A stretch of 62,552 nucleotides of DNA, filler included, from Hausera hauseri (GCA_046269625.1; 13 parts of 13 records of this genome joined end to end with filler, not necessarily neighbours in it), one strand, 5' to 3'. Shown: positions 4,631 through 62,552, counted from the first letter of the whole stretch. Made by a program: numbers and translations. Notes: a model not told the origin generated them from the sequence alone.

Positions 4631-4735
4631 CGGCGTTTATTATATAAGGATATAATTAATAACAGAAGTTCTAAATTTAAATCAGATACAATTTTAAATT
4701 TAAATTAAGATTGTAATTTGGAATAATTTAGAAAA

Positions 4736-19440: not shown

Positions 19441-20357
19441 TTGTGTTATTAATTCATGCATCCTTACTTTTTTTTAATTCTTTCAAATTTGTCATTAACT
19501 ATTTATTAGTTGTTGGTTCTACGCAGCTCGTGAATTGTTCTGATATGTGTCACTGGTAACAAATTTATCTGGGCACTTATGGAATTTTAAAAATGTTGCA
19601 GTAATGATGGTCCATTAACGAAATTAAACAAAATTAAAACAACTATAATAAATTTGTCTGGTAAACTTTTTTAAAGGTCNNNNNNNNNNNNNNNNNNNNN
19701 NNNNNNNNNNNNNNNNNNNNNNNTTAATTAATTAANNNNNNNNNNNNNNNNNNNNNNNNNNNNNNNNNNNNNNNNNNNNCAAAATCTCTTGCTTCTTAAC
19801 CAAATCGTTCTTAATTGCTTTCCACCATGTTACCAACTGAGCAAATGATAATTCGTCAAAATATTGCAATTGTATTAATTGGTCTTGTACATCCATATTT
19901 TACACGTGACATTTTAACATGAGTGTTAATACCAGAAATTGAAAAATAAGGGGTACCCTCGAGGGAAGAATCGATTTTCCTCCTGAAGGGGTCAGTTTTT
20001 ATCCTGAGGGGGTCAATTTTGTGGGGTCTTTGTTTTATTGCCTTTGATCTAGAGTCTTTTTATAGGGTCTTTGTTCTCGGGGGTGGAAATAGTAAAATCC
20101 AATGAGTCCAAATTTTCCTTTGTTTTCGGGGGGTCTATCGAATACTGCTCTTTGATTGATCACTATTTGTTACCCCCAAATGATGCGTCCTCCTCCCATT
20201 GGCCAGTTTCCTACACCCGATGACGTGTTCAACTGTGATTAGTTACTTTCCTCCTCGGGGGAGGGGGTCTGATCTCATCTATCTACTTATTTCCACTTGT
20301 CTACCGAATGAGCTGTTTCAGCCTTGCTGTAACTGATACAATCTCGCTAGATGGTAC

Positions 20358-21152
20358 TCATTTTTTATCATATTGTTCCTTGTCTTCGTCGGTTTGCAAA
20401 TATTCGAAATACATTGCTGCATCTAAGACTCCCATGATTTGTCCTACGCATTGATAACTTTTAGCATTACGCGTGGCTTCTTCTTTTTTCTCGTCATTGG
20501 CGACTATCGCCACTATACCATTTGTTCCGCCTGGTATGATTCCGACGTCTGTTAACTGTTCTAATTCGTCTAACATTCTACCTCTAAAATAAAGTCTACA
20601 ACTTAGTTCGTTTCCGCCACTATTATTAATTACCCATTGTTGTACGTCTCTCACAAAGCAGCGTGTTGTAAACTCATTTTTGTCCATCTATTCAGATGTT
20701 ATTTTAACTTTTATCGTCTCTTCAGGTTTAACCCTTAAGATTTCAGCATATTCCTTTATTAAAAGTTTGTGCATAGCACTATAAATCGTGTTTTCGCTAG
20801 ACAATTTAGTCATAGTAGAATGTAGCTGTCGTAACTTATTTTCAGTAATATTTACATTAATTATATCTATTAAATCTATTTCAGCTTGCGCCGAATCAAG
20901 AAATATTTGCACAGTGAATTTCCGATCCTGTGGGCAAGTCTCCGCTTCGTACAGATATACAGGAGTTTTCCGATTCGCGGAAACTATTGCATCTAAGTAT
21001 GCATCCCATTTTGGATAGTTTTCATTTTCTGGAGGTCCATAGTCATTTACTAGCATAACCGTTGGTCGGATTGCGTTTGTATTTCGTACTATTTCTCTAA
21101 CTTCTACTTTCGATTTAGATCACTTCCGTTTTAGTTTCGTTTCAATGTACAT
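20358..21152 (-). pseudogene. Ubiquitin-like-domain ORF homologous to the accessory region of the gag-env element at 57790-58490
   Basis: ORFs 20688-21056 and 20358-20687 are in frame; the separating TAG corresponds to W in the paralog. IKVKI...VRDVQQW...RLYFRGRMLDELEQLTDVGIIPG resembles a Ubl fold. TATAAAAG lies ~25-30 nt upstream of an ATG at 21152. Confidence 0.7.
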
Positions 21153-22440: not shown

Positions 22441-22516
22441 TACTAAAAAGCCTAACAAACAAAAACAACATAAGATATAATGTAAAATATTTATTAATAT
22501 AACAGTTACAACACAA

Positions 22517-28500: not shown

Positions 28501-28799
28501 TAGCATAAAAAATGTCAGTGCACATGTTTAGTACACATACTTGCTGACTGCAAAGTCACAGGTTCAATTCCCAGCAATGACAGGTCAAATCTTTAGGACC
28601 AGAATGTCTGCTGGATCTCTTGTNNNNNNNNNNNNNNNNNNNNNNNNNNNNNNNNNNNNNNNNNNNNTTAATTAATTAANNNNNNNNNNNNNNNNNNNNN
28701 NNNNNNNNNNNNNNNNNNNNNNNGATCCTTCAATATAGTATCAATGATAATAAATATGTGCAATTGTGCATCTACAGGTTTGTAATGGCTGTAACAAGA

Positions 28800-29590: not shown

Positions 29591-30073
29591 GTCAGCAGCA
29601 TTAGAAGGTGGAGATCAATCCATCGTGAGTATAGTGCCCATATGCTGTGTTGCCCCGTAACCCATTTTGGTGGGACATGGCCGGGTGCGTTGGTTCGCAC
29701 CGATTGGCAGGGCCTTTGATTCCTCCCTCGGGGATTTTGCTGTGGTTGCAACCATCTGGCCAGTCTAATTCCTTCGAGCAGTCAGTCGAAAACAGAATCA
29801 GATCACTCTTAATCAATCATCTTTCTGAACATCTCAAAACTTCCATTATATATCGATGGAAATTATTCGTTAGTACTTCATCGTAGTACAATAGAATGCC
29901 TTGTGATTAAAATATATTTAAATGGAGGAATATGTCAATCAGATACTTTTGGTATGAATGAATATCGTTATGACTGCACATCAGTCTGGTTGATTCGGTA
30001 ACCAATTGCTTTCCTTAAAACTGTAGACAAGCAGATTAATAAAACATCGACTGACATTGTCGGATGTTGCATC

Positions 30074-31364: not shown

Positions 31365-31373
31365 ATAGAACAT

Positions 31374-36400: not shown

Positions 36401-37059
36401 TTAGCTTCACGGATCAGCTTCGTATGCTCTTCATGCAGCCATTCAGGTATATTTGTGTTTCCCAATATGGGCCTATTTTTAGTCTTGAAGACCCTATTCG
36501 ATTCTTCAGCATCAACATTGACGTATGTGGCCTCAAGTTTCATATTAACCTTAAGGGCTTCTGTTTCTTCTTTTGCATATTCCAGGAACTCCTTGATGGT
36601 TCTTTGCCCAGATGCATCAATGACATATTTGCGGATTTTATTCTTTAATGCAGCAGCATCAACTGGCTGCCGTCTTTGACTTTTTGGCTGAGCTGCTGCG
36701 CCTGTTGTGCCTGAGGCATCTGATGGACCTGATTGGCGTTTTACACTTGTGGGCTCTACTGCGGACTGTTCTGTGAACTGTACTGTGGACTGTACTGCGG
36801 ATTGTGTAACTGGCCTATGCTCATTAAATATGATCTTCTTGGATTTTGATGCAAAGTCAGTCAGATGATCTTTATGATCTTCATGGAACTGTATGTATTC
36901 GCCATCACATACAGTCTCACATCCAGAGCAAATATAATAAAGGATTCGATTGAATTTGTGGACATAATAGATCCTCATGATATTGTGGCAATTCTCGGGG
37001 TTATGTATTGTACATGAGCAATACATATATGAACTGCACCTTTTGTTTTCTTTTGACAC
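33456..37059 (-). pseudogene. polB: Polinton/Maverick pPolB remnant (copy 3, distinct lineage) including its N-terminal region
   Basis: KSGW, GSSYIQLP, CFMYGIL, DHCHFTGAYRGAACNNCN, VVFHNLSGYD, LRFIDSFRFM, LLLADVFESFR, YLDANNLYVWAMS, NNSVFGKTIENIRRR, YMDTDS, LRSKMY, KTAKGI. Confidence 0.95.
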
Positions 37060-38679
37060 GTCTTGACGAAGGATATCAAGTGATGTTTATGTACGTTGTA
37101 GAATTCCTCTTACACTGTCCTGCACATTACCTCACATGTAGAGCATATATAATATTGGATTCTGTTGAATATATGGCCATAGTATTTCATCATAGTACTG
37201 TGGCAGGTTTTTAGCTCATGTATTTGAGCTAGACAATCTTTGTACAATTTGCACATCCAAAACAAAAGCAATTATTTGATGTAGACAAAATAAGAAAAAA
37301 CTTACCATTCTCGGAAGTGATTTTTGGAGGTGAATTTGTAAATAATGAAAAATATAGCTGTGTCAACTTACACTGCCTAATTTTGATAATTGATGCAGTA
37401 AAGCAAAACACATGTAAGGAAATCATTTTAATGGTGGGGTAAATTCGGCAATGAATATTGTTGTTGTATAGTCAACATCATGTACATTTGTTTTAATGCA
37501 TCAAATACACGAACTTGTCACGTAATTATGCTATGGTATTGCCTTTGTTTTAATGCATTAAATTATTTAAAATATCACGCGCCATATTTGAATAGGTCTT
37601 CGACCATGCCGAACCGATTGGCGCCATCACATTCTTCGAATAATGCACGCTTCATCGAATATTCGNNNNNNNNNNNNNNNNNNNNNNNNNNNNNNNNNNN
37701 NNNNNNNNNTTAATTAATTAANNNNNNNNNNNNNNNNNNNNNNNNNNNNNNNNNNNNNNNNNNNNGTCTTTTCCAATGGGTCTAGGCAACTGTAACTTTG
37801 TTCTGTAAAGACCTTGAAAATCTATTTAAATTCATCGAATGACACATTGGCTAGGATTTCTGCCTTTAATTCCAGATATTTGGACTTCTTCTAACTTTAT
37901 GAATTCCAAGTTCGTATCAAGGATAAACTTAACGACATTCACTCGATCAATGTACGCATCGAATGACCAAGCAATAGAGGGTTAGAAAATTGCTTTGATT
38001 CACTTTTTAGCTCTTACCGTTGGCTTTCGAGTTCTTGTTTCGCTTTCAATCCATGATTATTTTTCGTTTATCTGACTACCACTTTTGGTTGAACTCGTAT
38101 AATTTACAATATTGTCTTTGATTTCAACGTTATCAATATTCACATCCGAAGATCGTGATTGAGACTGATCAACATCTATCATGTAAACCCGTGGACCTAT
38201 ACTAATTGTTTGGAATTCTGGAAATTGCGACCAAATGGCTTCCATATTCATCACAATATCATCTAACGAATTGTTAAATGATGAATTATACATCTTTATT
38301 GTTTCATCATGTCTTGGAATAGGATGATATTCATTTTTTGGCAGTTGCAAATAGTTATTTTGATATTCGCTTAAAAGTTCATTTCGATTGCCATTAGCTA
38401 ATTTTGAAGTTTATTTTTAGACATGAATAATGGATACCCGATTAAAATTCACTTGTTTTTAAGTTTATAAACATCGACTTATTGACCTTATAGAAGCTAT
38501 TATGAGAATCAACGTTGTTTGTGCCATATCACTGAGTTTTGGGTATTTCGCTACTAAATCTACTGTAACTGATTTTTCGAATTTGTGAGTAAATTTTATT
38601 CGACAAGCTTCTTGGTGATTAAGATTCCGATTTTTTCATCACTTTCATTTTTGACACTTTTGATGAAGTATCATTTTCA

Positions 38680-38827
38680 TCAAAAGGTGACCAACCAACC
38701 GCCAACAAACGGAAATTGGCAAGCATAAGCCGGGGCGAACGGCACACCGGTCTAGTGGTACCAAATAACGGACCGGATGCCGAAGTGATGGCGACGCCCA
38801 TAACCGTGCACCACATTACCTCCTCCC
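38680..38827 (-). mobile_element. Polypurine tract and start of the 3' LTR of the gypsy element at 39230-41120
   Basis: Minus strand reads GGGAGGAGGTAA (38827-38816) immediately followed by TGTGGTGC (38815 downward). The distal LTR boundary is approximate. Confidence 0.6.
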
Positions 38828-39229
38828 GTAACAAAGACGGCATTACAATAAAGGACAAAACTACAAGGAAATAATAGCAAAAAGAAATAGTGTATATATC
38901 CTATTCAGTTTAGTATGTACCGGACGTTATACTTTGACAATATTTTGTTCTCTACTGTACTTGCTAAAGGAAACCGACTTGCGTTGCGTGATTTGTTGTT
39001 TTTCTCTCTGCTAAAATAGTTGACGTGATATTTTGTGATGATCTGAAATGTCAGCAGACTGAAGACTAGTTGGTAAATTGTTTAATGTCTCGGTCTGAGT
39101 TGACGGTGATTTTGAAAGGAGATACTGAGATGTTCGCAAGGTACAGAAAGGGTTGTATTTCAGTGCGTGATTGAAAGAAGGTAGAAAATATCGTGTGGAG
39201 TTAGGCGCTGAGTCAGACGTGTCATTAAC

Positions 39230-41120
39230 AAAAAATACCGACTTGACGTTGGTTATGTGAACGTTTTGTTCATTTCCGTTCTTAAATATCATAACCATGT
39301 GTGATGTTATGTTTAGGACATTGAAAGATCCTAAGTAATGTTACTGAAATCCAGATGGTGTAGGATTTTTCAGTCATAGGAATTTGGCATTAAATAACGA
39401 TTTAGATAAATATGACTTGTTGCCCTGTATGATTTTGCAAAAGGAATCCTGACTTAGCCAGACGAAATAATTTTGTGCAGATTGTATTGTCTCATTAGTC
39501 TGTGTGTTGTGGTGCCGAAAAGTGCTTCTGTGAGTTCACAACTTGTGGTTGTAGCAGGGTATTGAGAAACCCGAGTAATGCGAATGGAAGGATGGTGGTC
39601 CAGTTCGCATGGGTTTTTTCTTAGATTTATATTGCAATTTTAACAGTTTTGTGGAGACGCTCCAGCAAATCGTTCGACTGGGGTGGTATGGAGTTGTATG
39701 TACGTAGTTTTTGCCCAGTCAATTAACTAAGGATTTGAATAAGTTCGATTCGAAATGAGGGCCTTGATCTGTAATTATGTGATGTGGCAAACCGAACCTG
39801 CTAATCCAAATCCTTATAAAAGCATCGGCGATGGGTTCTGTATTAGTGGAGCAAAGGAAAATGGCCCCAGACAAATGAGGTGCTTGATCCACCATTGGTA
39901 AGACGAATTGATGGCCGTTGTTGGATGGTAAAGGACCAACGATATCTGGATGGAAGGATTCGAAACAGGACATACAGGGAAAACGAAATAGTGGTAGTTT
40001 AAGGTGCCTAACTGTCTTAAATTTCTGGCAAGCCACACATGGCCTAACCCAGATCTGTACGTCAGATCTCATTGATTGCCATGTTACGTGGCGTTAAAGA
40101 AGGCAGAATGTAGACTTCGCACCTGGATGTTTCAAAGAATGAATGTTATTAAAAGCTGTCTGTCGAAGAGCTGGTGACAAAATCTGTAAGTAATTCCCAG
40201 TTTGCTAGGTGTCCATGCTACACCGTCGATGATTTTGACTGCTTTATATTGGCTAAGTATCTCAGTGATTGGAGAGTTTGAATTAGTTGGTCTTTGAAGA
40301 AAACAGATGTGACACTTATCTCATCAACCGACTAAAAGTCAGCAATTAAATTTTCTATGACAGAAATATAGCAAATTTTAAATTTAAACGTTGATAAATA
40401 TGAAACATGACGTTCCTGCTGGGGTGATGGATTTATTATGCTCATAATGTGAAAAAGAAGCTTGTGGTCAGTTTGAATTGCAAAGAAACGAGCGACGAGG
40501 TGTGAAAAGTGTTTGAGTGCTAAAATGATGGCTTACAGCTCTCTATCAAAGGGGGAATAACGATGTTTTTGTGGCTGTAACTTTCGTGAGAAAAATTCGA
40601 GTTATTCATTTGTTCCTTGATAAGTTTGTTGAAGAATTGCTTCGACTGTTGTTGTTGATGCATCAGTTGTTAGGATGAGATCGCGTCAGGCTTTGGATAG
40701 GCTAAAATTTCAACCATTTTAATGCTGTTCTGAAATTCATCAAATTGGTTTACAAGTTCCGAAGTCCATTATAAAGGCCGATTCTTTTTTTCTTCTCCTA
40801 GTTGAGCGAAAGTGGCAGTTAGCTGACTGGGATGTGGTACGTATTTGTGAATGAAATGCAAAGTCCCAAGGAAACGGCGCATATCAGTTGTGGTTTTAGG
40901 TAATGCGACATATTTTAATTCTTCGGCTCTATCGGGTGTGGACTATGTCCACCAGGTGTGATAATATGGCCCAGAAAATTTACTTTTTTCGGAAAGAATA
41001 AATACATAGCGAAGTTGACTTGCAAGTTGTTATTATGCAAGCGTTGAAAGACTATTTTGAGGTGCTCGTCGTGTTGTTAGGGTAAATTTGATGCGACCAG
41101 TATATCGTCGATGCATGGAT
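39230..41120 (-). mobile_element. pol: Ty3/gypsy pol remnant (RT, RNase H, integrase), CsRn1-like
   Basis: CIDDILVAS, VNFLGH, LTTDAS, FFSRKL..YSPFDREL, HPG...CVACQ, DIVGPLP and WISRFGLP..IITDQG..FES. Confidence 0.9.
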
Positions 41121-42002
41121 TGTTGTTATAATCCAATACCTTCTGAATTACCGAAATCGTCAAATGAAATTTAAAGTTCTCGCGGGTCCGAGGATGGTCC
41201 GACATCGAAGGATGCCTGCATCCCATGTATTACCTCCACAATATTGATCCCAAATAAACCTAGGTTCGTTTATCGACAAAAGAAATATATTCAAACACAA
41301 ACGAATACACACAATTTTCAGCGGCACATTCAATTAATTAATACTACTAATTCGCCTTAACAAATTATTTTACTAATTTTAATAACAAGAATCACAAACT
41401 ACTAAACCGACTACAGAATTATCAAAATTACAAAACTATGAAATTTACGCTCAATAAAACAAAACTCTTAAACAAAATTAATGACCCTTACCAAGTTCAT
41501 CCTCAACATTCCGGATCACTATATTGTTGTTAATTTCTGGACCCACGCCGGATACCTCATCTTGCTGAATTCTTTGTGGATTCATCCCTGTAGCAATTTG
41601 ATAGTAAGTAGAACGTGAACCTTCAATTAAATATAAGACAAACAACTAATGTCTTCACAACTTACTTTAGGACTGTGTTGATATCAACGTATTTCTTCTA
41701 GGTTCGGCTTCCTCGTAGAGTTACAGCTCTGTCGTAGAAAATTGGTTCTCCACAAAATCTGTCACAAAAAGATCGCAAAAGTTTTGTTGAGTTGTCGTCG
41801 CGAAATAAAAAATGTGTCTGAGTGGTCGTTTGGACGCAGTTTATATAGTATTTTGGACGACCATTATCGTTAATCAAATCTGGAACGATAAACAAATTGA
41901 CGNNNNNNNNNNNNNNNNNNNNNNNNNNNNNNNNNNNNNNNNNNNNTTAATTAATTAANNNNNNNNNNNNNNNNNNNNNNNNNNNNNNNNNNNNNNNNNN
42001 NN

Positions 42003-45000
42003 TATTCCACCGAGAACAGAGATAATAATCTATGCGCAAATTCAACCGGTATATTTTGAACCAAAGGAGACATTAAATCCGAATATAATACCTAGTCACA
42101 CACTGACAAGAGTACACACTGGTCGTGTACCGATCAGAATAGAAAATAATGCACCAACCCCGTCAAGCTTCATGCCTATACTACTTTAGGAAATACTTAG
42201 TGTCATCTGTAACTATAGAAGAAAAGCCTTATAAGTATGCTGAATTCCCACCTCATGTCGAAACTAAGTTTTCTCCCCAATCTTGTCGATTCTACAAGTT
42301 ATTATGCCGCTATAAGTCGATTATTGCTAAGGACGACGAAGACATTGGTAGGGCAAAGGCATTAAGGTTAACTATTCCGCTTAAGAAAAAATCCGGTTCA
42401 AATAAAGAGATAGATCTTCAAGATCAAAATATAACGAAATGGTATTCTCCGCCACATTCATTAAGGCCCGAGATAACAAAAGTTGAACGAATGCTTAAAG
42501 GTGATATAATTAGGCCTAGTTATGGATCTTGGTTTCACCAATCCTCATGGTTAAGAAAGGTACTACAAAGTATTGACTACAGAGCATTAAATAATCTCAT
42601 GATGAAGGATTCTTTTCCATTGCCATCATTAAAAGAGGCTCTAGACAGGCTCAGGAGCAAAATGGTTTACCACTCTGGATTTACAAACCGGATATTGGCA
42701 GGTAGAAATCGAGGACGAAGATCGGTATAAAACCGCATTGAAAACATACGATGGCCTTTGCGAATTCAACGTCATGCCGTTCGGTATTACTACAAGACCA
42801 GCCATTTTTAAAGAATGATGAACAAAGTGTTAATTGGATTAGATCATGCTTCTGCATACTTAGATGATGTAATGATAACGTCAAAGACGGAAGAACATTT
42901 AAAGGATATTGAGCATACACTTAAGACTAGAACAATCAGGATTAAAATTAAACCCAAAGAAATGTAAATATGTTCAAAATGCAGTATCCTACCTTGGTCA
43001 TATAGTTGGAGGAGGATCAAAACCAGATAAATCACTGTTGAACAAAACATCAGACTGCATGGACTCAAAATCAGAAAGAGTTAAGGCACTGGCTAGGCCT
43101 CTGGATATTATACCACTTACGTGTCAAACAACTCGAAAATATATGCACCCTTATATCGACTTCTTAAAAAAGGAATTAAATGGAAATGGACAGACGTCGA
43201 ACAAAAAGCTTTAGACGAGATGAAAAAAATATTAACAAATGAACCAGTTTTACGATACCCAGACTTTAACTTACCCTTTATAATCAAGACAGATGCCAGT
43301 AAAGAAGGCATTGGATATGAATTAGCGCAGCAAAGAGAAGATAAAAAATTAGAACACCCAATTGCTTATGGAGGACGTTCCTAGAAGGCCGAAAAAATTA
43401 TTCTGTTACCGAATTAGAAACTCTAGTTGCAAAAGAACTTCGACACTTAAACGTTTACGTGTACGGGCAGAAAATTCTAATTGTTACTGATCACAAAACC
43501 GTCACAACTTTAAAAGGGCGAGCAAATAATCCGACATGCAGACTTAACAGATGGATCGAAGAAATCTCTAGATACAATATCGAATTCCAGTGTAAGCCAG
43601 AAAATAAACATATAGATGCCGTGTGCTATCAAAATTAAAGACCAAGACAAGTGCAATCACTATAATGAAGAAAAGTCAGCTTTAAGAAATAATAAATCGC
43701 CAACGCGCCTTAACGATGGATAAAGCGATTAAAATCTCAACCGAACAAAGAAAGAATAGAATTATCCGGCAAATTATAGAATTTGCTGAGGACATAGTAC
43801 CAAAAGGACGTCAATTAAAGAAGCAACTGCGTAGACACGGACACAAATATTGCGTTCTGAACAAGGGTCTTAAAAATTCCTATATTATGAGCGAAAAGGA
43901 AGAAAACTGATAGTTATTCAGAAAAATTTACGAAATGAAGTTCTGATGTCAGAATATGATTCGTATTTGGCAAGACATGTCCTGAAAGAAAACGTTAGAA
44001 AGAATATTGAATAAATTCTTTTGGCCCAGAATTTATATTGATGTAAAAACTGGGTAAATGCTCGTGAAGTATGTGCGACCAAACAAAAAAGACGACAAAT
44101 TACATGGCGGAACTGAAACCAATCGACGTACAGCACAGACTTATGCAAGCCATGTCAATGGATATAGTAGCACCGCTCCCTACGATCCACAAAAACAATA
44201 TATTTTGACTTGTATTGATCGACTAATTCATTTTGTCGAGTTGATAGCGTTAATTGATCAAAAGGCAAAAACTTTGGCAGAAGCTGTAGTAAGAATCATA
44301 TGCCGATATGGACCTCCAGACCAAATATTGACAGATCGAGGAAGAAATTTTACAAGTGAACTCTTCAAAAAGATTACCAAAATATTTAAAATTGAACGGT
44401 TAACTACTACCGCGTATCACCCTCAGTGTAATGGAATGGTTAAACGAATGAATGCAACTGTCATACGCATACTATCAACAGTAGTAGCTAAGGACCAAAA
44501 AGATTTTGACGAATTTTTAGAAGGAACTCAATTTGCAATTAATACCACTCCACATCCGGCAACAGGATTTACGCCATTTTTCATGATATATGGACGTGAA
44601 GCTGTATTACCAACAGACTTAGAAATGACGCCATACACGGTCAATCCCGAAGACTTCGAACAAAACTTTGCAGAAGTATTACAGACGCGGCTACAAAAAT
44701 GTTGGGAAATCGACAAGGAGTTATCCCATGAATATCAAGAACAGTTTAAAAAGCAATATGATAAGAAAGCGAAACCACATGATTTAGAACGAGAAAATTG
44801 GGTTTACGTACATTATCCAGTAGCCAAGAAAGGTACGTCATTAAAACTGATTTGTACAGGCAGAGGACCGTACGAAGTTACCAGAGTTACGCCAACTACA
44901 GTGTACATCAACAAGAATGGAAAGGTAGAAGTCGTGTCAATACAAAGAGTTGTCAAGATGGAGATACGGCCCAATAAACATTACAAGTTACACCAACGCG

Positions 45001-45065
45001 AGACAAAAACCTCTTCAATAATTGCTAGACCGATATCATACGTTCAGATAGTTTTAGCACTATAG
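42003..45065 (+). mobile_element. pol: Ty3/gypsy pol remnant (RT, RNase H, integrase with GPY motif)
   Basis: IDYRALN, FPLP, GYWQ, MPFG, AYLDDV, YLGH, PVLRYPDF..IKTDAS, YSVTELE, TDH, LTCID, LTDRGRNFTS, YHPQCNG and GPY; frameshifted. Confidence 0.95.
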
Positions 45066-46432
45066 TTAATTGCTTCTTATATCCCAAGAACACAAACTCA
45101 ATGGTGGGATAATAAAACTACGCTGGGAGATGTATACGGAATACGAAAAAGCGGACTAAAGGCAAAAAATACCATAGCGGAAAAGAAACCAACAACCAAA
45201 GAGATCCAGAAACGAGAAAACACTATTTTGTTACAATCAATGAAGGTTCATTACTTTTCGCCAGACTCTGTGTGGGATTTACAACTTTGAAACCGCATCA
45301 TGATTTTTGAAGATTTCAAATTGTCCTATACGATGTAACAACAAAAGAAGCGAAAAACTGATTTTGAACCCGGAGATTATACACAATGCTGCGACAGATG
45401 TTGGACACATTTACATCCTTACTTATCGACTATACTTACCAGACTCATCAGAAGTCTACACCGAAGTAAACCCACAACTTCAGTTTGTTATTCCCATTTG
45501 GATCAAACGATTTGAAGTAAAGCCCAACGAAATGCTTCAATCCACAGACCAAAACGTAAGGTTATTAGATAAGAATATTAGAGGAATCTCAGTAAACAAA
45601 GGTAGACGATGTATCCAAGTAGATGCTCGACGGGAATTAACCCATAATCAAGAAATCAGTACTGATTTTGAAGCAGTAAATGGAATAACTCCGAAAATAA
45701 TTTACTGTTCTGTTCATGCCGGTGTACAACACTCATGTTGTAAGATACCAGTAAACCAAGAATTCAAAATAAAATTTGACCTATATAAAGTACAACCGAA
45801 TAAACCGAGCAAACATTTGCGAACCTATTACCCAGAGAATAGAATATGGAGGATTACAACAGAAACAACAAACGAAAAGCCGACTACTCGAGTCAGTGTC
45901 ATTACGAGACCCGTTACATCAAGCCGTGTGCCTAAGAGAATTAGAAAGTGTACCTATTAAATATTCGGCACATCGATTTAAAATTGTGTTCTTTACAGAA
46001 GAAAAGCTAAATTACGATATACATATAAGCTGCCAAACAACTTAAAATAATCAAATTGTAACACTACTTAAAAATACTTATCAGACAGAATGCAGTTTGT
46101 TAAAATCACAATCCGATTATATAGTCCAAGTATATACAAAAGATAAACAAAACCAAACAATTACATCGCATACCTTAGACGAAATTCGTGCAGAATCTCA
46201 TATAGATAAAAAAAACGATGTAATCACAACTCCAGTCCCCTCACAAGCACCAATGGGATTAACTACTTTACCAGTTGTTTCCATTGTCGTACTATCAACG
46301 TTTGTTCTCATTATATTAAATGCGATTTTTCTATTAGTTGACAAAAATTGTCATTCTAAGCGTCCTAAAATTATAGAATAGGAACTAAGGGAATTGGAAA
46401 CCCCTATTGATCCGTATGATAAAATAACTTGA
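45030..46432 (+). pseudogene. Env-position type I membrane protein after the gypsy integrase (signal-like stretch, FN3-like module, C-terminal TM)
   Basis: Hydrophobic YVQIVLAL*LIASYIPRTQT continues in the integrase frame; Cys-containing ectodomain; LKSQSDYIVQVYT; TM LPVVSIVVLSTFVLIILNAIFLLV followed by a basic tail. Confidence 0.55.
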
Positions 46433-46534
46433 CAACTACAGAGCGGGTTATTCTACCATCTAACAAAGAATTGGTTTCATTTTAAGACCATACTTTGTTG
46501 TAAGATTAACCATTACTGTTTATTTTTTAGACTG

Positions 46535-46981
46535 ATGAGTAAAGAGAGAGTTATAAAAACGGATACCGGACGACCTAGAATCGATGGACCGCAATCTATC
46601 CAAGAACGAGAACGATGTAGTATCGATAACGCACCAAAACGCCGAATTAGTATCGACGAGTTCCTGCAAAATTACGCTACCATCTTCCTCCCAAATTCGA
46701 AATCCATATATCGAGAAATTCATAACGAATTGCATGAAAAAACCTTCGTGAAGTATAATCAGACGAGTAAAATTCCTAACAATTTAAAGGGTATGACAGA
46801 AGAAAATAGAATTGTTTACCTTTACGCCATGAGAGAAGACAAAGATGCCCGAGCTTACTCACTCAAACAGATGATCACGTACGAACATCATCAGAGTATT
46901 TATATCCACCTGGCAGATTGTGAGAGTAATGGAGCAGCAAAAATAAATAATAAGCAAATTATTATTTATTTTAATTTGTTT
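46535..46981 (+). CDS. Orphan ORF downstream of the gypsy membrane ORF, truncated by the linker
   Basis: Open frame of ~149 codons; no recognisable domain. Confidence 0.35.
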
Positions 46982-47884: not shown

Positions 47885-47885
47885 A

Positions 47886-48343
47886 ATGACCACGCAACAA
47901 TTTTTAACGAACTACAACTCGACATTTACGTGCAGCGTACTACTCCAATGGTAGTGGTGCGTGCCATGTTACCCACATATATCGAACCAAATGAACATGT
48001 GGCTTTTGTTGCAAACACAGATCCCAGTGATAAACGGGGTTCACATTGGATGAACCTTTATTACGATGGGCTGGATACATTTCATTATTTCGACTCGTTT
48101 AGTTTGCCTCCCTTACAGGCAGACATTTTGAATTTTATTAAACAAAATTCCAATATGCCCTACGTATACAATGCCAAGGTTTTACAAGATGTGTTGAGTA
48201 ATACTTGTGGGCCATATGCCATTTATTTTATACTTACTAAAGTCAGAGGCGGATCTATGAATCGCATCCTTGCACCAATTTCAAATCATAGACAATATAT
48301 TAACGATCTTAATATCATGTCTAGTGCGACCTTGGCTACGTAA
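47886..48343 (+). pseudogene. Polinton adenain-like cysteine protease, N-terminus frameshifted
   Basis: VANTDPS...GSHW, YFDSF and Q...SNTCGPY give the catalytic His/Asp/Gln/Cys pattern; directly follows the capsid gene. Confidence 0.9.
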
Positions 48344-48464
48344 AAGCAAGCTTGACTTCTGTAAATAGCCACGATGTGAGAAATAACAATGACGAAATTA
48401 ATAAGGTTTAAACTGGTTAACAAGCTATATAAGACGCTATCACACTGAACTGTTTCATGTCAAA

Positions 48465-49125
48465 ATGTTTGCAAGAATTGATAACTGTGTTTTTGTCATG
48501 GGTGATGCTGTACTTGTAAAACAGCTAACTCTTATGAAACAGATTACTGTTTCACCATATCAAAAAACGGTGTTAGTAAACATAAGACGTTACTATGGGG
48601 AAAGTAACATAAAGTTCCCAACAAAAACTGGAATCACATTAACTCGTGAAGAATTTGAACAATTGTTTGATTTAAAGAGTGACATTATATCTGCTTTTAA
48701 TTATGTAACAACAGAACCAGTCCAAGGTGGTGTACCTGACACTTTATCGAACTTGTATGACCAGTCAACACAAACCGAGCAGAGCATTATGCCATTAGTA
48801 TCCAATAAACCGAATATTTTTTATGACCCAGTCACGCAATCCGAACCTATTTTTTTTTTTTTACCTTTCTATGACAAGTCCAAGCAAACCGAGCAGAACA
48901 TTATGCCCTTGGTGTTGAATGAAACCGGTCCTTTCCAGACTTTTGATCCAGTGTTATGACAAGCCCAAGAAAAGCTTTTCAAATGAATATGTACATGTTC
49001 CACATACGTCCACGCAAGCTGAATCGACACCCTCGTTTGTATCGTTGTCAAATGAATTTGAGTCCATGTCAAATGAACTTTTACAAATAAAGAAGAAGAA
49101 AGCAAAGAAACCAAAACTTGAATAA
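48465..49125 (+). CDS. PC4/Sub1-like ssDNA-binding protein with a repetitive TQT-motif tail and basic C-terminus (one frameshift near 48940)
   Basis: ITVSPYQKTVLVNIRRYY...PTKTGITLTREEFEQL matches the PC4 pattern. TATATAAG at ~48426; AATAAA at and after the stop. Confidence 0.75.
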
Positions 49126-53147: not shown

Positions 53148-53379
53148 TATTTTTATCACGATTTGTTTGTTAATAAACGTTTTTACATGTTAATCTTTGT
53201 ATGTTATAGTTATAAATGTTCACAGTACCAAAGCAGTATAATTGTTCACAATACAAAAACAGTATAAATGTTCAAAATACGAAAACAGTGTAAACGAAAG
53301 GTATTTGATTAAAAAGCCTTATTAATAAAACAAACACAGTAAAGAATGAAATATTTGTTAACATGAAATATATGTACAT

Positions 53380-56064
53380 CATTAACAATAATCACATGTA
53401 TACAGTAATGTTTATATGCGACACTTTTGTTTTGGTCAATCCACTGGCGTTTGTCGTCGAATGGATCCAATGCTTTCTTCTTTAAGCTGATTATCATAAG
53501 TTGGTGGTTTTTACTGCCAATTCGCTCCTGTTTCACCGCGGTCCCACAATTTGTTCCATAAGCTTCTAGGTAGTTACAGAACTGCAAGTCTGTCTGCTTA
53601 AGATTTATGCCCTTGCATTTTAGGACTGGTTTGGTTTGTCTTTTGAGGGCATAGGATTTCGGCCGTAGGAAAATCGCGTCTTAATACTGAACGCAGCTCT
53701 TACTCTCGTCTTTAAATTTCCCAATTACAGCTGCGAAACAAGTCGAGAACAGCAGATCACTCTTATCATAGTTCGATGTATCTAACTGCTCGTTTGTTAT
53801 CAATACCGGTAACAGTTGCGATTTTAAGTACGCATCACGGCATTCTATGAAAAAAAACTGTTTGTGTCACCAGGAACAATATTAAGTTCACATTGAAACT
53901 GGTATCTATATGTCTCCAAGTCGATATAATTCAGCTCATACATCCGTAACTTGGATAGATCAAGTACGGCCTGACCGATGTAAGAGGGCCTATCTAAGGT
54001 GACTATATCTTTATCGAGAAGAACGGCAACCAGATTATCGGCTATAATAATGCTCTCTTTAAACTGTGCCTTGCTTGTGTAAGTAACTAGCTTTTTAGCA
54101 TTATTGCATAGTCTCAGATTTTCAAGCATATTTTCAACGTTTTTGCCGTATAAGCTATGGTTCTTAACCTTTAAAACTCTTTTTCAAAAGGATTATTTGC
54201 TGCAGCTCTCTTTGCAGTGTTTAGATCGATATAATCCTTAAAAACAGCCTTGGTCTAACTCAACGGCTCAATGTACCTTTTCAACTACAGCACCTAACTC
54301 GATGTACAACTGTAATAGCCGATAGTGAACAACATAGTTGGACTTATGCACATGTGTAAGAAGCAATTTCTTAATTTTTTAACCTGGAGGACATTTACTA
54401 ATTTGGGATAAAAGCAATTGGTCCAACTTATCATGTTTGTCAGGCGGAATGCTTAAGTCGACTTCAAAGACAGCCTCGTTTTCCCGTGACACAATCAATA
54501 TAGGGCAATTGTTCAATTAGACTGTTTAACTTATTCTCATCACATATCCAAATTCGCAAATGGCAGTGGTTGTGATAAAGCCCACAAGTATAATTTATTT
54601 ACATCTATGTACAAGAGGCTGGTGCTTTCATTGGAGACAATCGTATGCTTATTTACAAAAGTCATCCCACCGCAAATACGCGATTAAAAGAAATTGTACA
54701 TTTCAGGTTCATGAATGAGTTCGTAACGACATGGACTTGTTTTCAGTGCTGTTGCTCGAGATAAACCTGAAATAGATAGGAAATTAATCGTCTCTAAATC
54801 ATCCTGCAACTTAGTCTCCTTTCTAAACCGTTTAAATATATCGCCTAACAAGTATACGTCAAGCTACATATATACAAATATATAATCTAAAAGACAGCTA
54901 AAACTGTATTTTGACCAAACCAGTTGTGCTTCCTCATAATCGGTATCCCTAACTCTATCCCATTTCGGTGGCAACTCCTTTATAGACTGCAAGTCACTGA
55001 ACTATTTGGCTGCAGTACATGAAAAAATACCTTTCCCCTTAATAATACCAGATGGAAAAGCAGACTCAGTAAGGGGATAGCTATCTAAGTTGGAGGCTAA
55101 TGTTTTCAATGATGTCGGTAGATACTGCAACGAGTCGAGAAATCGAATAGAAACATACTTTTTGTATGAACACTGTATATTTGCCTGCATGGTTAAAAAT
55201 TTCTCCGTTGTTTGTGCAATAACACTCAAATTCCAAGTAGCAAATTTACTTAATGCATGTTTTAAGATATGATGAAAATCATATCTACGCAAATTGTGAA
55301 AAATAACAAGCAAATTATACCTAATTTTACGAGCCAAGTTACACTGATTACATGCTGGGCCCAAGTATTTACCTGTAACGTGGCAGTGATCACGAACAAA
55401 TGTAGTGCCATGTTCATGGCAAATATAACATGCTGTAGCATTTTTAAACAGAAACCATTCAGCTAATGTTAACGGGATCATTGGCTTTTTGCATTATCAT
55501 ACCGCGGGAAAACAATTACCTTGACAATTTCCTCTAAACAGGCCAGAAACTGAACTATGTAATTTTCACCTACAAATTGCCTATATTTCATATCTGATGG
55601 GGACGCTAACAAGAGACCGGCTTCAGCAGGCAAATTAATATGCTTGACTTTATCATTAGGACACAGAACCGATTCAAATTCAGCATATACGACGAAAAGC
55701 GGACTTATAAATTTGGCCCAGTCCTTAAATTCACAAAACTTACTTTCTGGTATTTTATATAAAGTCATGTACTTGGCAGAAGAATTTCACATAGGCAAAT
55801 GCTTAAAATATCCCATATCATACCTAAATCCATATAAACATTTTTCACATTAATGTTTTCATTGAATTCTTATGCTTTTAGACCGTTTGTTTAACAGCCG
55901 ATTTAGATTGGGAACAGCAACATAGTGAAAGTGATCATCATTCTTGAGAATCAGCAAGTTATCTACAGCTCTATTCGGATTTTTGCTGCGGTACAAAATA
56001 TCAGCGAATGGATTTTTTACTACGTCCTTATCAAAATCTACATCATCCTCTTCATGAAACAGAA
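53380..56064 (-). pseudogene. polB: Polinton/Maverick pPolB remnant (copy 4)
   Basis: FVVYAEFES, RDHCHVTGKYLGPACNQCN, IFHNLRRYD, RFLDSLQY, YIDVN, HSLYGKNVEN, RPSYIGQAVLDLSKLRMY, PGDTNS and FDDKRQW; clearly nucleotide-similar to 22517-24212. Confidence 0.95.
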
Positions 56065-56164
56065 NNNNNNNNNNNNNNNNNNNNNNNNNNNNNNNNNNNN
56101 NNNNNNNNTTAATTAATTAANNNNNNNNNNNNNNNNNNNNNNNNNNNNNNNNNNNNNNNNNNNN

Positions 56165-57196
56165 ATCCAATTTACAATCATTTGTTATCATTTTATGATA
56201 TAACTCGGTTATTCCGACTTGCCCTTTGTAATAGAAGTAATCGTCTCTCTTTTTCATATAATCCTCAATTCGGATATCTTGCGTTTCTAACTTGTAAGTT
56301 TTCGCATTTATTTCTGTCTCTGCGACAAAGAACGCTTCACAGTTGGTAGCGAACATCACTACTTCACAACGAGAAATTATTTTTTTCTTACTAAATTTTA
56401 GTCCATGCTGATCACAGATTAATATAGTGGGCGTGGGATGTTCTGATACGTCTTCGTGTGTCCTTGAGTTGGTATCAGATTTATCCATACATAGCTTTCC
56501 GGTAGTTTCATTAAACTTTAATTCCTTAATTTTGATAAAATTACAGCTTCTTCCAGCGGGAGGTTCCCATATTATAACAGAACTTCTAAAAGCATAGATT
56601 TCGTTTTGTAAATGACATTTTTGATTTTTGGTATTTAGTTTGGTGACACTATAGAACATCACTTTCTGTGCTCGCATCTCTGATTCATAGAAATCCACGA
56701 CCATTGCGTTTGCTTGTAATCCTTTTCCGGTGTCATATTCCGCTCCGTTACAATGTCCGTTGTGCATGTCTAACCTTCCGACCACTACCTTGTATGCCCT
56801 AGTGATCTTTCCTGGTTGCATTTCCAATTCCATACTGTCTCACTGTACTCTTCCAGTCTCCTTAGTATGTTTGCAGTGCTGCCGTTCTAAGTTCATTGGA
56901 ATTGGAGGGGTTGTTGGTTTGATTATTGAAGAATGTCCGTACATTACCCCACAGTGAAAAATGCTACGAGATCGTCTCAGCATACATTCCATTCCATCTA
57001 ATGATATCAATTCTTGTTGTTGGTACAGAAAATAATTTTTCTCTCTCGTTTCTAACTTGTGCGACCTGGCATCTTCGCACACTTCCAAATTTATTAGGGA
57101 ATATCTTTGCCCTAGTTTAAACTTATCGCAGTCGTAGATGGTAACAGCGCCTATGTGCTTTATTAGCATTATCAAGGTGAATAAGCTGATTAGCCA
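56165..57196 (-). pseudogene. env: Chuvirus-like / gB-like class III fusion glycoprotein (env), N-terminal part; one in-frame stop, truncated by the linker
   Basis: Signal-like WLISLFTLIMLIKHIGA, then IYDC...YSL..LEVC...LYQ...C......FHCG...HSS...C...TG...G..CNG..Y...VV. This is the Cys/motif order known from chuvirus G and the glycoproteins of Anakin/Tas-type retroelements. Confidence 0.8.
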
Positions 57197-57661
57197 ATTT
57201 GATTCATTTTTTCGGTTATTATTATCGGTTGTTACCAAATTACGTAACATATCGTCGAATCTATTACTATTATCCAACCGATTATCTTCTTCCTTATCGA
57301 ATAGTCTCGACCAATTCACTTCGAATGGTAGCCTTCTTGCCGCTGTTCGTGCTAAGCTTGTAGCTCTATTAATTTCATTCTCTCGATTAGGGTTTACTTT
57401 GATAGCTAAGTATAATAATACTTTTCTTAATTCTTCAGTGGTGTTTTCTACCATGATCTCTTTGATTACCGATTCGTCGGTTAAGTTACTTTTTGATAGT
57501 TTAAAACGTGAACTTTTCATCATTCTAGCTGCACTAAATATTGCCTTTTCTTTATCGTCTAACGTATCACCGCAAAAGCTTGAATAATTTACTATGCGTA
57601 TTAAATTCTTCATTAATTCGCTTAATTCTTCATTATTTGTGCTGAAAGTCGGAAATGACAT

Positions 57662-60600
57662 TTGTCTTAATTCTCTAATTAATTCTCCATTATAATCGAC
57701 TTCTTCTCATGTCTTCTTAGGCCTACCGACTGGGCGTTTCTGTCTTAGGACATTGGCTATCTTTTCACTTAGCGGCACTAAATTCTTGTCGTATTGTTCC
57801 TTGTCTCCATCCGTTTGTAAATACTAGAAATACATTTCAGCATCTCGGACTCCCATGATTTGTCCTACGCATTGTTTCGTCTTGGCTTTACGCGTGTCTT
57901 CTTTTGTCTGTTCATTGGCTATCATTACTACTATTCGATTTGTTTCGTCGGGGATAATCCCTACACCTATTAATTGTTCTAAATAGTCGAGTATTCTACC
58001 TCTAAAGTAAAATCTATAATTTAGCTCATTTGTTCCGCCATTATTTAACAACCATTCTCTTACGTCCCTTACATAGGAATATGTAGTTGACTCACATTCT
58101 TTTTCGTCCATCCACTCGGATGATAGTATTACTTTTATTGTTACTTCAAGTTTAGCCCTGAAGATTTTAGCATATTTCCTTATTAAATGTTTCTGCACCG
58201 TACTATAAACTGTGCTCTCCCTGGATAATTTAGAAAAAGTTGGAATAAGTTGCCTTAACTTACTTTCAGTAATGTTTACGTTAATTAGTTCAATTAGATC
58301 TTTTTAAGTTAGCGCTGAATCCAGCAGCATCTCCCCATTGAATTTCCTGTTCTGAAGATACGTTTCTATTTCATTTAGGTGTACTGGAGTTACATGATTT
58401 TCGGCCGTTAGTGCATCTAAATACTCATCCCACTCCGGTTTATTTCCAATACCTGGAAATCCATAGTCTACTAAGGCTGTATTCGTTCTTTGTACATTTT
58501 CCCGAATTTATTTCAATCTTAGTTGTATTTCTTTCATCTGCGTACTTTGGAAACCTATTTCGTTTCCACAGGCATACTGTATCATTCTCAGTAATTCACC
58601 TAATTCATTAGAATTGATGAATCCCTTTTAATGATAATCAGTTAGTTTAACAATTACATCTCTTTGCCATCTTGTACAAATTCTCGCGTATTTTTGATTT
58701 CTGATTCATTAAAAGCATATTTGTTCCGGTAGATTTCGAGCTTTTTTACTAATTCGTCTAACCTCGTTCCTCTTTGTTTGCTTCTAATGCACGTTTCTTT
58801 AACCTGTCTTATTTTAGGCATCAACTTTCTCATCTTCTCATTATTAATTTCTGCCATTTCTACTTATATGAAGGCTAACTCATACATCTCATTTATGACT
58901 TTTGAGTCGGGATCCACTGCATCCAGAAATTTCTTTACGAACTTAGATTCTTCGAAACTAAGATGTTGGTCGTTTCTTATTTTTGTTAACTCGGTGTGGC
59001 AATTCTGATCTGTTCCGGCCATCCATTGATATGGTTTGTGCAAGAATTTTATTGCTTTCGATAAAGCTGCTCTATGTTCCGGACAAATATCTAGGGTTTC
59101 GATATCCTGGATTAAAATCTTGTAGATAGGTTTATCTGTTAACTGTTGGACTCCTTCTAGTCCGATGCTTCTTAATCTTGGATAAAAATTGCAAGTCATA
59201 TTTCGCTTTTCTGTAAAGTTTGTCTCTTCGATCATTTTATAAATCTCTTCCAATATCGTCGTTTCTTGCTTCTTCTTCATAAAATTTAGTCGTCGTAAAG
59301 CTTCGAATTGCGTTCGGATGTCTATTTCTGCTTGTATTGTATATAAATTACGTGCATTTTCTTATAATGTTCTCTTTACAGATGGGTCGCTTTTTGGAAA
59401 TTCTTTCTTACGGTATTCTACTAATTTGCTTAGCCTCATTATTAATCCGGACCATTCCGCAATTGATTGGCGATTATTGCTTTGTCTAGCATCTTATACA
59501 AATCGCTTAATTCATCATCTGGACCTCTTATGAAATTCATAATCCGGCTGACATAACTAAATTCATCCTTATATTCATCAAATTCTATGATACAAGCTTT
59601 TACTACGTATTTGGTTTCTTTGTTATTTGGGGACATAATTTGGTTTCTCAAACTACAAATTTATGTTCGTTTTTCATTTTCCATTTTGATTCAATTCTCT
59701 GGGTTCGTGTATTGTTTAGGTATAGCGAAAGAAATTTTTATCATATCCATTAAGAGAGGAATATCTACTGGGTCTATACCCAATATTTCTAAATCGATAT
59801 TACTTCGATTGCTAACCGGTTATTCTCTAGGCCGATTAATCATTGCACAGCGAATTTCATCCATCATACACTCTAAATTACGAACTACTCTCTTTAGTTT
59901 TGGATTTTCTCCTAGGGCAGACAGTAGCGTCTGGGCCTTAGCGACTTTTACGTCAACACAATCTTAATTTTTACTCCATCTTTCAGAAAATTCGACTCCA
60001 CTTTTAATCCATGATTCTAATTCATGCTTCCATTTTAACAACGTTTCAAGTAATACTTCTTCAGGTTGTACTAAGTCGATTGCTTTATCAAGCTTTCCTT
60101 CACTGCATAATTTAAACTTTTATATAGCCTTTCAGCAAACTGTTGCTCTTTTCCGGATATATCTATTTGTTTGCTAATCTGCTCAAGCCTTTCTAAATTT
60201 CGCTGTAATATTTCTGGATCGTGACACCTGATTCTCATATTCTTTAACTCATTGGCATATTTCCACGAACGTCGGACTTTCCACTTCCTTGGATCAAGAT
60301 CATCAATATTTCTCGTTTCTTTCTCACTAGTGGGAAATGGGCAAATCTCGTTAATTTCATTAATTGACTCTGTAGATTCTTTTACCTCGGTAGGTGTGAA
60401 TGGACCAATGTCTGGTGTATTTAAGCTATGTTCTACGTCGCCTTCTACAACGATGTTCGTATTTTTCGTTTCTTCTATTTTCTCTCTAGTTACTTGCGAG
60501 CGTAAACGACTTCTACGTTTCGTTTTAATGAAGGGCTACGGCCTCTATTTTTCGTAATTTTAAGTATAAATGGCTCCATGAATTCTTTTTCTGCTGTATC

Positions 60601-61000
60601 GTCATCGGTAGACTTATCTACTTTTCCGACCGTGAACTTGGGCTCTACATCTAAGTCGACTTCTGTCGAAGTTTCTGGGCTATCAGATATTTTATTACTC
60701 GTCTGAACACTCCTTTTTCGTATCATATTAATTCGCTTGGGTGCTATTGCATGCTCATATTCAGTTTTTGGTTTTGTTAAACCATGATACACTTCTAATA
60801 GTCTTAGCTTATCTCCACATTCTTTTTTAGCCATAAAAAATTGTGGGTTAGTAGTCTCAGGCTAAGCATCTAAAAATTTTCGAAAGTCTTGTATATCGAT
60901 AATAGTACCTGTATCTCCGCGAACACCATACTTCGCTTCTAAGTTTTCATTAACTTTATTCATACTAGTCGCATTAGGTTCTGTAAATGAAACGCTACGC
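57662..61000 (-). pseudogene. Long decayed accessory coding region between Gag and Env: helical unknown region, ubiquitin-like domain (~57925-58145), AT-hook (57713-57739)
   Basis: Continuous coding-like sequence broken by scattered stops and frameshifts. RFYFRGRILDYLEQLIGVGII and KRPVGRPKK are in frame with the env ORF. No PR, RT, RNase H or integrase motifs seen. Confidence 0.65.
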
Positions 61001-61008
61001 GGATTGGG

Positions 61009-62285
61009 ACATGACCTTGCAATATGACTTTCTTTACCGCAGGTAAAACAAACTAAATTTCCATTTCTGCCGACTTTGTCGACCGTCTTTATTCACAGGT
61101 GACTTGGATCTATTTGTACTTCTATTGTACTGGTTCGGCAAACTTTGTGTACTATCTACATTTCTTCGACTATCATTATTTCGATTATCATCATCACGAT
61201 TTGAATACTTAGAAATTTTGTAGTTTCCTCGATTTCTATTCGAATTGGAATTTGACTTGTTCATATTTTGGCCATTAGCATAACTATTGTTTCGACAATT
61301 CCTGTAGTCATTATTACTATTTCTGTTTTCATAATTTCTATTTCCATTAAATTGTCTATCATCTCTTCCACGATTGTCATTCCGATTTCTATCATTACGG
61401 TCATTTCGAACATTATTTTTATTATTTCTATCGTTGTGTCTGGCATATCTGTCGAGTGCCATTTCTAAGTCTTCAGCCAATTGCAGAGTTTTCTCGAAAT
61501 TCTCAGGTCTTGCCAAAATCAACTGTTTAATTAAATCTCGGGACGAAATACCATTAATTAATTGAGTAGTCATCATGACGCCTAAATCTGGCGGGATTGC
61601 CTTTTTCGCAGCATCGCGTTCTGCGCCTGTTTTAGCTTTTGCTACATTAGCTATTCTCAAGGTAATTATTATCGAGTTTCTTTAATTCAAATGCAAACTG
61701 GGTTACCAATTCACCCTTCTGTTGCATTCTATTTTGAAATGCCATAAGCTTCTGTTGTGGTGTTACTATCGGCAATAAATTACGGTTTAATGCTCCTATT
61801 AGGGAGGACCAAGATTTCTTTTCGTCAATTGTGAGCTCGCTGTAAGTATCAGCGGCTAAAATTTTCAAATAAAACGACAAACGTTTAATCATCACTTCAG
61901 GTGTAAGACTAGCACCTTCTGCGTGCAATTTATAAGTTCTCAAGAATTCATTTAACCAATCCGGATCACAATCGTATGCCGGCAGGTTTAGAGAGTCAAA
62001 AGTAAAGATGTCCTGTTTTTGCGCCACTGGTGGCTTATCTGCTGCCCTATTAGTCTCAAAATTTACTTTATTAGTTCTAGGTTTTGCAAAAGGAATTTTA
62101 AACTTATCGGTTCGCTCAACGGCGGTTAAATCTGTATTAATTGAATTTACTCTAGTCTCAGAGAGTGAACTTCTATCTAACTTTTTACTATCTCTATATA
62201 TATTTCTACGCGTCTGGCGTATAGGCGAGTTTTCTGTATTGTTTAAGTCAATGTTCACTTTTAACCAATCAATATTTGTTTTCAA
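61009..62285 (-). pseudogene. gag: Ty3/gypsy-type Gag (capsid, Asn/Arg-rich linker, CCHC zinc knuckle), two frameshifts
   Basis: WLNEFLRTY...LSFYLK..AADTY...SWSSL...RMQQKGELVTQFAFELKKL; QLINGI...FEKTLQLAEDLE; knuckle CFTCGKESHIARSC at 61050-61009. Confidence 0.88.
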
Positions 62286-62430
62286 AAGAATTTTACTTTA
62301 AACCCTGTTCAACTTATAACCGAATTTCAAAACTTTTCAAACTATATTCGATTACTTGATGTGGGGCGCTGATCGCCGGTATGTCGTTAATTAGCTCTAA
62401 GCTGAAATAAGTCTAGCGAGGCACTGATCT

Positions 62431-62552
62431 GTCCTGCTCGAGTCGCCAAATGTTATATATTCGGGTGGCCCTTATACAACTCCCACTATATAAAAATAAT
62501 TACAGTTGAGATTTTAGTACCTTAATGCAAGTAAGGTCTAACGTTATCGAAT
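62431..62552 (-). mobile_element. 3' end of the 5' LTR and primer-binding site
   Basis: Minus strand reads ...ATAACA (LTR end at 62451), TT, then TGGCGACTCGAGCAGGAC (62448-62431), complementary to a tRNA 3' end, probably tRNA-Arg. The LTR runs off the window. Confidence 0.8.

Follow-up and report, generated by a model that had tools for sequence, protein, structure and literature searches.

The stretch of DNA analysed here (the window, 62,552 nucleotides from the Hausera hauseri assembly GCA_046269625.1) consists of 13 separate contigs, each 4.0-6.4 kb long, with 12 identical 100-bp spacers between them, and its last contig (56165-62552, 6.4 kb) carries on the minus strand the remains of a long terminal repeat (LTR) retroelement. 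Read in the coding direction, the element shows a probable LTR end, a primer-binding-site-like motif, a Gag region with a zinc knuckle, an accessory sequence of about 1,270 codons between knuckle and env and, behind a hydrophobic segment, a fusion glycoprotein (env), which the contig end cuts about halfway, with nothing 3' of env in view (Table 1). Position 56165 is the contig end adjoining an artificial spacer and the element's own end does not lie there. In our view the contig very probably contains the 5' portion of a decayed, many-copy retroelement of the order gag-accessory-env, with pol likely located beyond the contig break, as in the Ty3/gypsy elements of the Burro type.

Table 1. Features of the element and of a related fragment, in coordinates of the whole window.
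Feature	Position	Strand	Basis or remark
Probable 3' end of the 5' LTR	62449..62552	-	Ends in CA at 62452-62451; deduced from its position before the primer site
Primer-binding-site-like motif	62431..62448	-	Begins with TGG, 2 nt past the CA
Gag capsid region	61457..62297	-	Broken by a frame change near 61650-61681
Asn/Arg/Asp-rich low-complexity Gag linker	61097..61444	-	Translation
CCHC zinc knuckle (nucleocapsid)	61009..61050	-	PF00098, E 2.4e-4; motif scan
Accessory region, no assigned domains	58157..61008	-	Four frame changes, several stops, lone DTG triad at 60915
Likely ubiquitin-like (beta-grasp) domain	57902..58156	-	Family profile
AT-hook-like motif KRPVGRPKK	57713..57739	-	Motif scan
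Helical domain at the position of the relatives' Bcl-2-like domain	57251..57706	-	Match in position only
Hydrophobic segment ahead of the env ectodomain, predicted to be an internal signal or membrane anchor	57149..57193	-	15 residues
N-terminal half of a fusion glycoprotein (env) of the chuvirus/herpes simplex virus glycoprotein B (HSV-gB) type	56165..57148	-	One stop at 56842
Artificial spacer (44 N, 12-nt linker, 44 N)	56065..56164	.	Not part of the element; marks the contig end
Part of a second, divergent copy of the accessory region (paralog)	20353..21056	-	On another contig

The part of env that remains carries 13 cysteines and matches the Pfam family PF24664 (Monjiviricetes_fusion) with an E-value (E) of 3.3e-17, in agreement with the first-pass annotation of the window, which had recognised a glycoprotein resembling those of chuviruses and gB. 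Since the match covers only positions 5-340 of the 653 in the profile, about half of env is missing. The hydrophobic segment that precedes it, proposed before as an internal signal peptide and retained here as a predicted internal signal or membrane anchor, has the highest 15-residue hydropathy of all seven pieces and aligns with the equivalent segment of the related protein P0009 as well as with the beginning of the PF24664 profile. With env as the query, a full HMMER search returned 51 proteins (the env relatives), 50 of them matching PF24664, with P0009 as the top match. Word-based protein searches gave no relative for the accessory-plus-env frame (7,994 candidates) or for env in longer proteins (613 candidates), and related-locus scans with env confirmed none of 58 pattern matches in metagenome contigs and neither of two in viral contigs.

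The location of pol can be judged from the gene order of the env relatives. Domains of protease (PR) and/or of reverse transcriptase (RT), ribonuclease H (RH) and integrase (IN) are found in 10 of the 51, always C-terminal to env and in the same open reading frame (ORF), and in none of them does pol come before env. When only the 12 relatives that run at least 750 residues from the env start are taken as informative, PR or pol follows env at E<=1e-3 in 10; of the other two, P0018 has a weak protease match (E 0.0018) and P0038 shows no pol domain in the 877 residues from its env start. A CCHC knuckle lies upstream of env in six relatives. Single-ORF relatives are P0009, P0012, P0014 and P0025, and in P0012 and P0025 this ORF holds the complete series knuckle-env-PR-RT-RH-IN, while the cluster members P0060 (4,844 aa) and P0066 (3,003 aa) likewise have the order env-PR-RT-RH-IN. 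P0009, which is the top match of our element for both Gag and env, reads Gag-CCHC-ubiquitin (E 0.031)-AT-hook-Bcl-2 (E 0.055)-env without pol in between, the same order as observed here. Pol placed 3' of env, the second of the two options in the first-pass annotation, is therefore the arrangement that the relatives display. The pol domains of the relatives are of Ty3/gypsy type and follow each other as PR-RT-RH-IN, so the earlier comparison with BEL/Pao elements is not sustained.

Two side observations concern the same proteins. Several of P0060, P0010, P0013, P0014, P0035 and P0039 contain two or more aspartic-protease-like domains, and P0060 has seven matched PF13975 stretches together with ankyrin and C2H2 zinc-finger matches, before RT and after the integrase. 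P0012 carries the NCBI label of a hypothetical protein from a Flavobacteriaceae metagenome-assembled genome; its source is likely animal DNA that ended up in a bacterial bin.

The other option of the first-pass annotation was a non-autonomous satellite family that makes a Gag-ubiquitin-like-AT-hook-fusogen polyprotein, lacks pol in all its members and depends on the Pol of a helper element. The many-copy nature of the family, the lack of pol in the visible 6.4 kb and the presence of unlinked gypsy pol fragments in the window would all fit such a family, as would P0011 and P0022, which end at or near the end of env, and P0038 with its pol-less tail. However, P0011 and P0022 each come from a single gene call, with the DNA downstream of it not in view, PR or pol follows env in most of the informative relatives, and because the contig stops inside env, the absence of pol is uninformative for the 3' side. 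With the contig ending where it does, this option has no positive evidence, and it appears unlikely to us; among the titles and abstract openings retrieved from the literature, no non-autonomous gag-env family of invertebrates was found.

The Gag region was identified with a profile built from the Gag domains of four relatives, which matches residues 101-210 of the ORF 62297-61650 (E 1e-18, at 61997-61668) and, weakly, the stretch 61582-61457 (E 0.03). Gag of P0009, the best match, is 33% identical (E 4.8e-14), and in the relatives themselves Retrotrans_gag is matched in P0035 (E 1.7e-4) and Ty3_capsid in P0025 (E 0.02). Low-complexity tracts similar to the linker of Table 1 occur in P0018 and P0022. 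Together with the PF00098 match of the knuckle, these data bear out the gypsy-like Gag with a CCHC knuckle that had been annotated. On the 5' side, only 104 bp upstream of the primer site lie in the window. No second LTR is present in the window, and the flanks are outside the contig; of the LTR end annotated before, the CA end and the primer-site-like motif are thus seen, but the LTR itself is a deduction. In the motif, which is covered by 60 contigs of the public run X1, only the first 7 nt are complementary to the 3' ends of tRNA-Arg(UCG/UCU) and tRNA-Ser(GCU) (PMC13524379, supplement). ARAGORN detected no tRNA gene in the window.

Between the knuckle and env no pol was detected. No Pfam match to PR, RT, RH or IN was obtained in the three minus frames of 57151-61052 or in the separate pieces, and profiles made from the relatives' PR, RT-RH and IN found nothing in the six frames of the element's contig; as positive controls, the RT-RH profile finds pol in three other contigs of the window and the IN profile in two, the PR profile having none. 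The earlier statement that no pol motifs lie between gag and env is borne out for these domains, but for the protease it is not true to the letter, a lone DTG triad being present at 60915. Located after the knuckle, where a protease would start, this triad could be taken as a sign that a canonical gag-pol-env element, of the BEL/Pao Anakin/Tas type or an errantivirus, has had its pol deleted or replaced in this copy, and section 14 of PMC13524379 indeed gives a chuvirus-like env 3' of pol for BEL/Pao elements and for gypsy elements of arthropods. The triad was nevertheless rejected as a protease remnant, no protease match being found around it. Moreover, pol precedes env in none of the 51 relatives, no BEL/Pao-type family appears in their Pfam tables, and the gag-env interval is common to many run X1 copies, an indication that these too have no pol there, so that a loss of pol from this position is the least probable of the explanations considered, with hardly any weight left to it.

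The accessory region has the same sense-strand composition as gag and env (A-rich, A 0.38-0.42), and its long upstream part gave no significant Pfam match. The frame 58198-56165 contains exactly three stops (57826, 57709 and 56842), as annotated before, the paralog having a sense codon at the first of them (57826); it extends upstream of 58198 to about 58650 with three more stops. The ubiquitin-like domain reported in the first-pass annotation is likely present upstream of env, as judged from a family profile (A2; this copy, the paralog and five relatives' segments picked by eye) that matches the ubiquilin ubiquitin-like domain (E 2.2e-4) and ubiquitin in the PDB. The support on this copy alone is weak: the segment by itself has no Pfam match, and the best match of a relatives-only profile falls on the predicted segment with 5.5 bits, a score reached by 8 of 1000 shuffles. 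The AT-hook is present as described, and GRP[RK] motifs occur upstream of env in P0009, P0010, P0013 and P0014 (4 of the 16 matches of at least 700 aa) and also in P0060. Just upstream of env, the Bcl-2 family PF00452 is matched in P0011 (E 9.6e-4), P0009 (E 0.055) and P0017 (E 0.2), that is, by weak matches in 3 of the 10 relatives scanned at E<=0.5. PDB sequence searches with the accessory-plus-env frame and with the two-copy alignment returned only chance-level matches (Talin, E 0.11; eIF3A, E 0.11). As a side observation, a stretch of 21 residues at 58609-58547 on the minus strand resembles residues 3721-3741 of P0060, which lie 3' of the integrase of that protein (pairwise blastp, E 0.001); phmmer did not recover this match.

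Other copies of the sequence indicate that the accessory region belongs to the element. The paralog shares 73% nucleotide and 59% protein identity with our copy, and the differences fall at codon positions 1, 2 and 3 in the numbers 47, 44 and 89 (89 of 180 at the third position; chi-square p 2.6e-5); this third-position excess therefore indicates past selection on the accessory protein. The paralog stops abruptly, and the adjoining 20340-19780 (minus strand) starts with TG and contains short repeats and AATAAA; it is possibly the LTR of another inserted element. In X1, the one public run that contains the stretch, no RNA data set being listed for it, 21,923 contigs map to the 6.4 kb and cover 30 of 30 bins, and 17,601 of these contigs are less than 95% alike to the stretch; because so many divergent copies cover the whole 6.4 kb, the accessory region can be assigned to the family, the summed depth not being a copy number. 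Our copy has six frame changes and many stops in total and cannot make the polyprotein. Among the rows listed for the run X1 copies (12 of 16), length differences occur at five of the six frame changes, which fits a copy-specific decay of one long frame.

Several observations weigh against the proposed reading and concern the origin of the data, the distance of the relatives and the nature of the domains. Run X1 may be the assembly's own source, and a link between this env and a pol is found neither in genome-level sequence nor on a long contig. Identity to the relatives is low (22-36% in env), and in the env tree, built from the 33 of 53 rows that remained after those with fewer than 200 query positions or with over-long spans had been left out, the window row forms a long branch outside all supported groups; its neighbours in an unsupported join include stand-alone glycoproteins, and the nearest rows by path include P0017 and P0010. 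The integrase of the decayed pol at 42003-46981, on another contig of the window, is 35-40% identical to those of the relatives, which are 43-87% identical to each other. Concerning the domains, the Bcl-2 test on this copy is not significant (131 of 1000 shuffles score equally well). The single-sequence AlphaFold models are too poor for use (predicted local distance difference test, pLDDT, of 35.0 for 446 aa of the accessory region and 47.8 for 97 aa of the ubiquitin-like segment), and the Foldseek comparison suggested in the first-pass annotation, carried out with both of these low-confidence models, gave nothing at E<=1e-3. The class III status of env would follow from its family membership and the literature, not from a computed fold. 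Finally, for the greater part of the accessory region (60.9-58.2 kb) no homologue could be detected in 60 relatives.

This last point could also suggest a chimera or a nest, in which the gag of a gypsy element, an unrelated insert and a chuvirus-like glycoprotein of endogenous type would lie side by side. Stand-alone glycoproteins (P0044, P0052, P0055) are indeed found among the weaker env matches, and no single run X1 contig spans the stretch. In contrast, all parts lie on a single strand with uniform composition, the accessory region and env are contiguous, with no stop-bounded or untranslated break between them, and one and the same relative, P0009, is the best match for Gag and for env. 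The accessory region is under codon-level constraint when compared with the paralog, and with all bins covered only 2% of the mapped run X1 sequence runs on unlike. The joints listed (15 of 187) are short, low-depth skips; of the loose ends, 6 of 2,249 are listed. We therefore consider a chimeric origin very unlikely, and keep the reading of the locus as one decayed gag-accessory-env-pol element cut by the contig end.

The architecture, which the first-pass annotation did not recognise from described families, has in fact been described, in the Burro elements (PMC6431247) and in the GAG-ENV-POL elements dealt with in sections 5 and 14 of PMC13524379. The planarian Burro contains Gag, a Ubi2/SUMO-like and a BCL2-like domain, and env in frame before PR (PMC6431247, section 7; 2019); its env resembles mononegavirus fusion glycoproteins, decayed fragments with stops and frameshifts have been reported, and an element of Dugesia likewise lacks MATH in ORF1 (PMC6431247). 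Passages of PMC11410931 and PMC8532177 describe Burro as abundant and as expressed once PIWI silencing is lost. Among known systems Burro/GYPSM1, a giant planarian Ty3/gypsy element (Jurka 2007, Grohme 2018, Arkhipova & Yushenova 2019), is among the closest when compared by its published domain map: both have an N-terminal Gag with CCHC, a long accessory region with a ubiquitin-like domain and then a fusion env, and both occur as many, decaying copies. The Ubi2/SUMO-like domain upstream of env has its counterpart here in the family-profile match given above, weak on this copy alone; for the BCL2-like domain, only the position of a segment before env agrees, its Bcl-2 match not being significant. 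The two differ in the number of knuckles (two or three in Burro, one here) and in the AT-hook (no occurrence in PMC6431247). Burro elements exceed 30 kb and have long LTRs; of our element 6.4 kb are present. No Pfam match to MATH, BIR or ankyrin domains (E<=1, three minus frames), nor to an Smc-like one, was found in this accessory region, and with the first three lacking, membership in Burro proper is not established.

The GAG-ENV-POL errantiviruses (Chary & Hayashi 2026, PMC13524379) carry, according to sections 5 and 14 of that work, an HSV/gB-type env in Ty3/gypsy elements of Nematoda, Bryozoa and Platyhelminthes, the nematode elements of Sacco et al. 2022 (as cited there) included. They share with our element the absence of pol between gag and env, a gypsy-type Gag and a chuvirus/gB-type env behind a signal or membrane segment, and their tRNA primer site may correspond to the primer-site-like motif here; in contrast, accessory domains such as those in the 1,270 or so codons between knuckle and env here are not described in these sections, and our copy is decayed and not intact. 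BEL/Pao Anakin (Dezordi 2020, as cited in PMC13524379) has in common with it a chuvirus-related glycoprotein in an LTR element. Here, no complete pol lies between gag and env, unlike in Anakin and Tas. In BEL/Pao elements env follows pol. A literature search joining gypsy env with Bcl-2 and ubiquitin-like accessory domains brought up only an unrelated preprint, and one on retrotransposons of the order gag-env-pol a single work.

The other contigs of the window, separated by spacers at 12 places in 4736-56164 across which neighbourhood has no meaning, hold by eye the transposon debris typical of an animal assembly. Decayed Ty3/gypsy pol with RT-RH and an integrase (PF00665, E 4e-10) is present at 42003-46981 on the plus strand; behind it lie ORFs without assignment at 45304-46381, of which one has a hydrophobic stretch, and at 46433-46981. 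This contig is also many-copy in run X1 (14,946 contigs). It was considered as the pol of our element and rejected, no link being shown and its integrase being farther from the relatives than they are among themselves. Two more decayed gypsy pol sequences, at 28724-32730 (plus strand) and 37766-41902 (minus strand), both contain RT-RH, and the second an integrase. The segments 22444-24212 and 53310-55311 are about 75% identical. We take, by eye, the broken ORFs at 7068-10268, 22444-24212, 33574-37086 and 53310-56064 to resemble Polinton/Maverick DNA polymerase B, and two ORFs at 47885-48959 (plus strand) to be presumably an adenovirus-type cysteine protease and a PC4-like protein, as in Polintons. 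The fragments at 4354-4704 and 14075-14593 (minus strand) are, likewise by eye, presumably remains of Tc1/mariner transposases.

Taken together, these data suggest that the element most likely works like a Burro-type gag-env-pol retroelement, and the observable features of the GAG-ENV-POL group are found in it. On the model of the single ORFs of P0012 and P0025, we propose that intact members would encode one long polyprotein in the order Gag-knuckle-accessory-signal-Env-transmembrane anchor-PR-RT-RH-IN. We predict that the hydrophobic segment directs the env ectodomain to the lumen of the endoplasmic reticulum, with Gag and the accessory domains staying cytosolic. Through a C-terminal membrane anchor of env the chain would re-enter the cytosol, and the protease would free RT and IN there. 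Such an element would replicate autonomously by tRNA-primed reverse transcription and may move from cell to cell in enveloped particles. For the ubiquitin-like, AT-hook and possibly Bcl-2-like modules, likely though putative roles would be in protein turnover of the host, in binding to DNA or chromatin and in cell death.

We consider it more likely that the ubiquitin-like/AT-hook/Bcl-2-like cassette, described so far for Burro, marks a wider, unnamed group of single-polyprotein elements than that the element belongs to a family living on the Pol of others. Our element and several unnamed relatives indicate that gag-accessory-env-pol polyproteins with this recurring cassette also occur outside the named Burro elements. 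The locus also illustrates a trap for genome scans: where a contig breaks off inside env, such an element seems to lack pol. Its value is comparative; it adds a further decayed member to a kind that has been published but little studied, and it raises the questions of how a polyprotein that would cross the membrane twice could give capsid, fusogen and enzymes in workable ratios, and of whether the accessory modules may act on host cell death or protein turnover.

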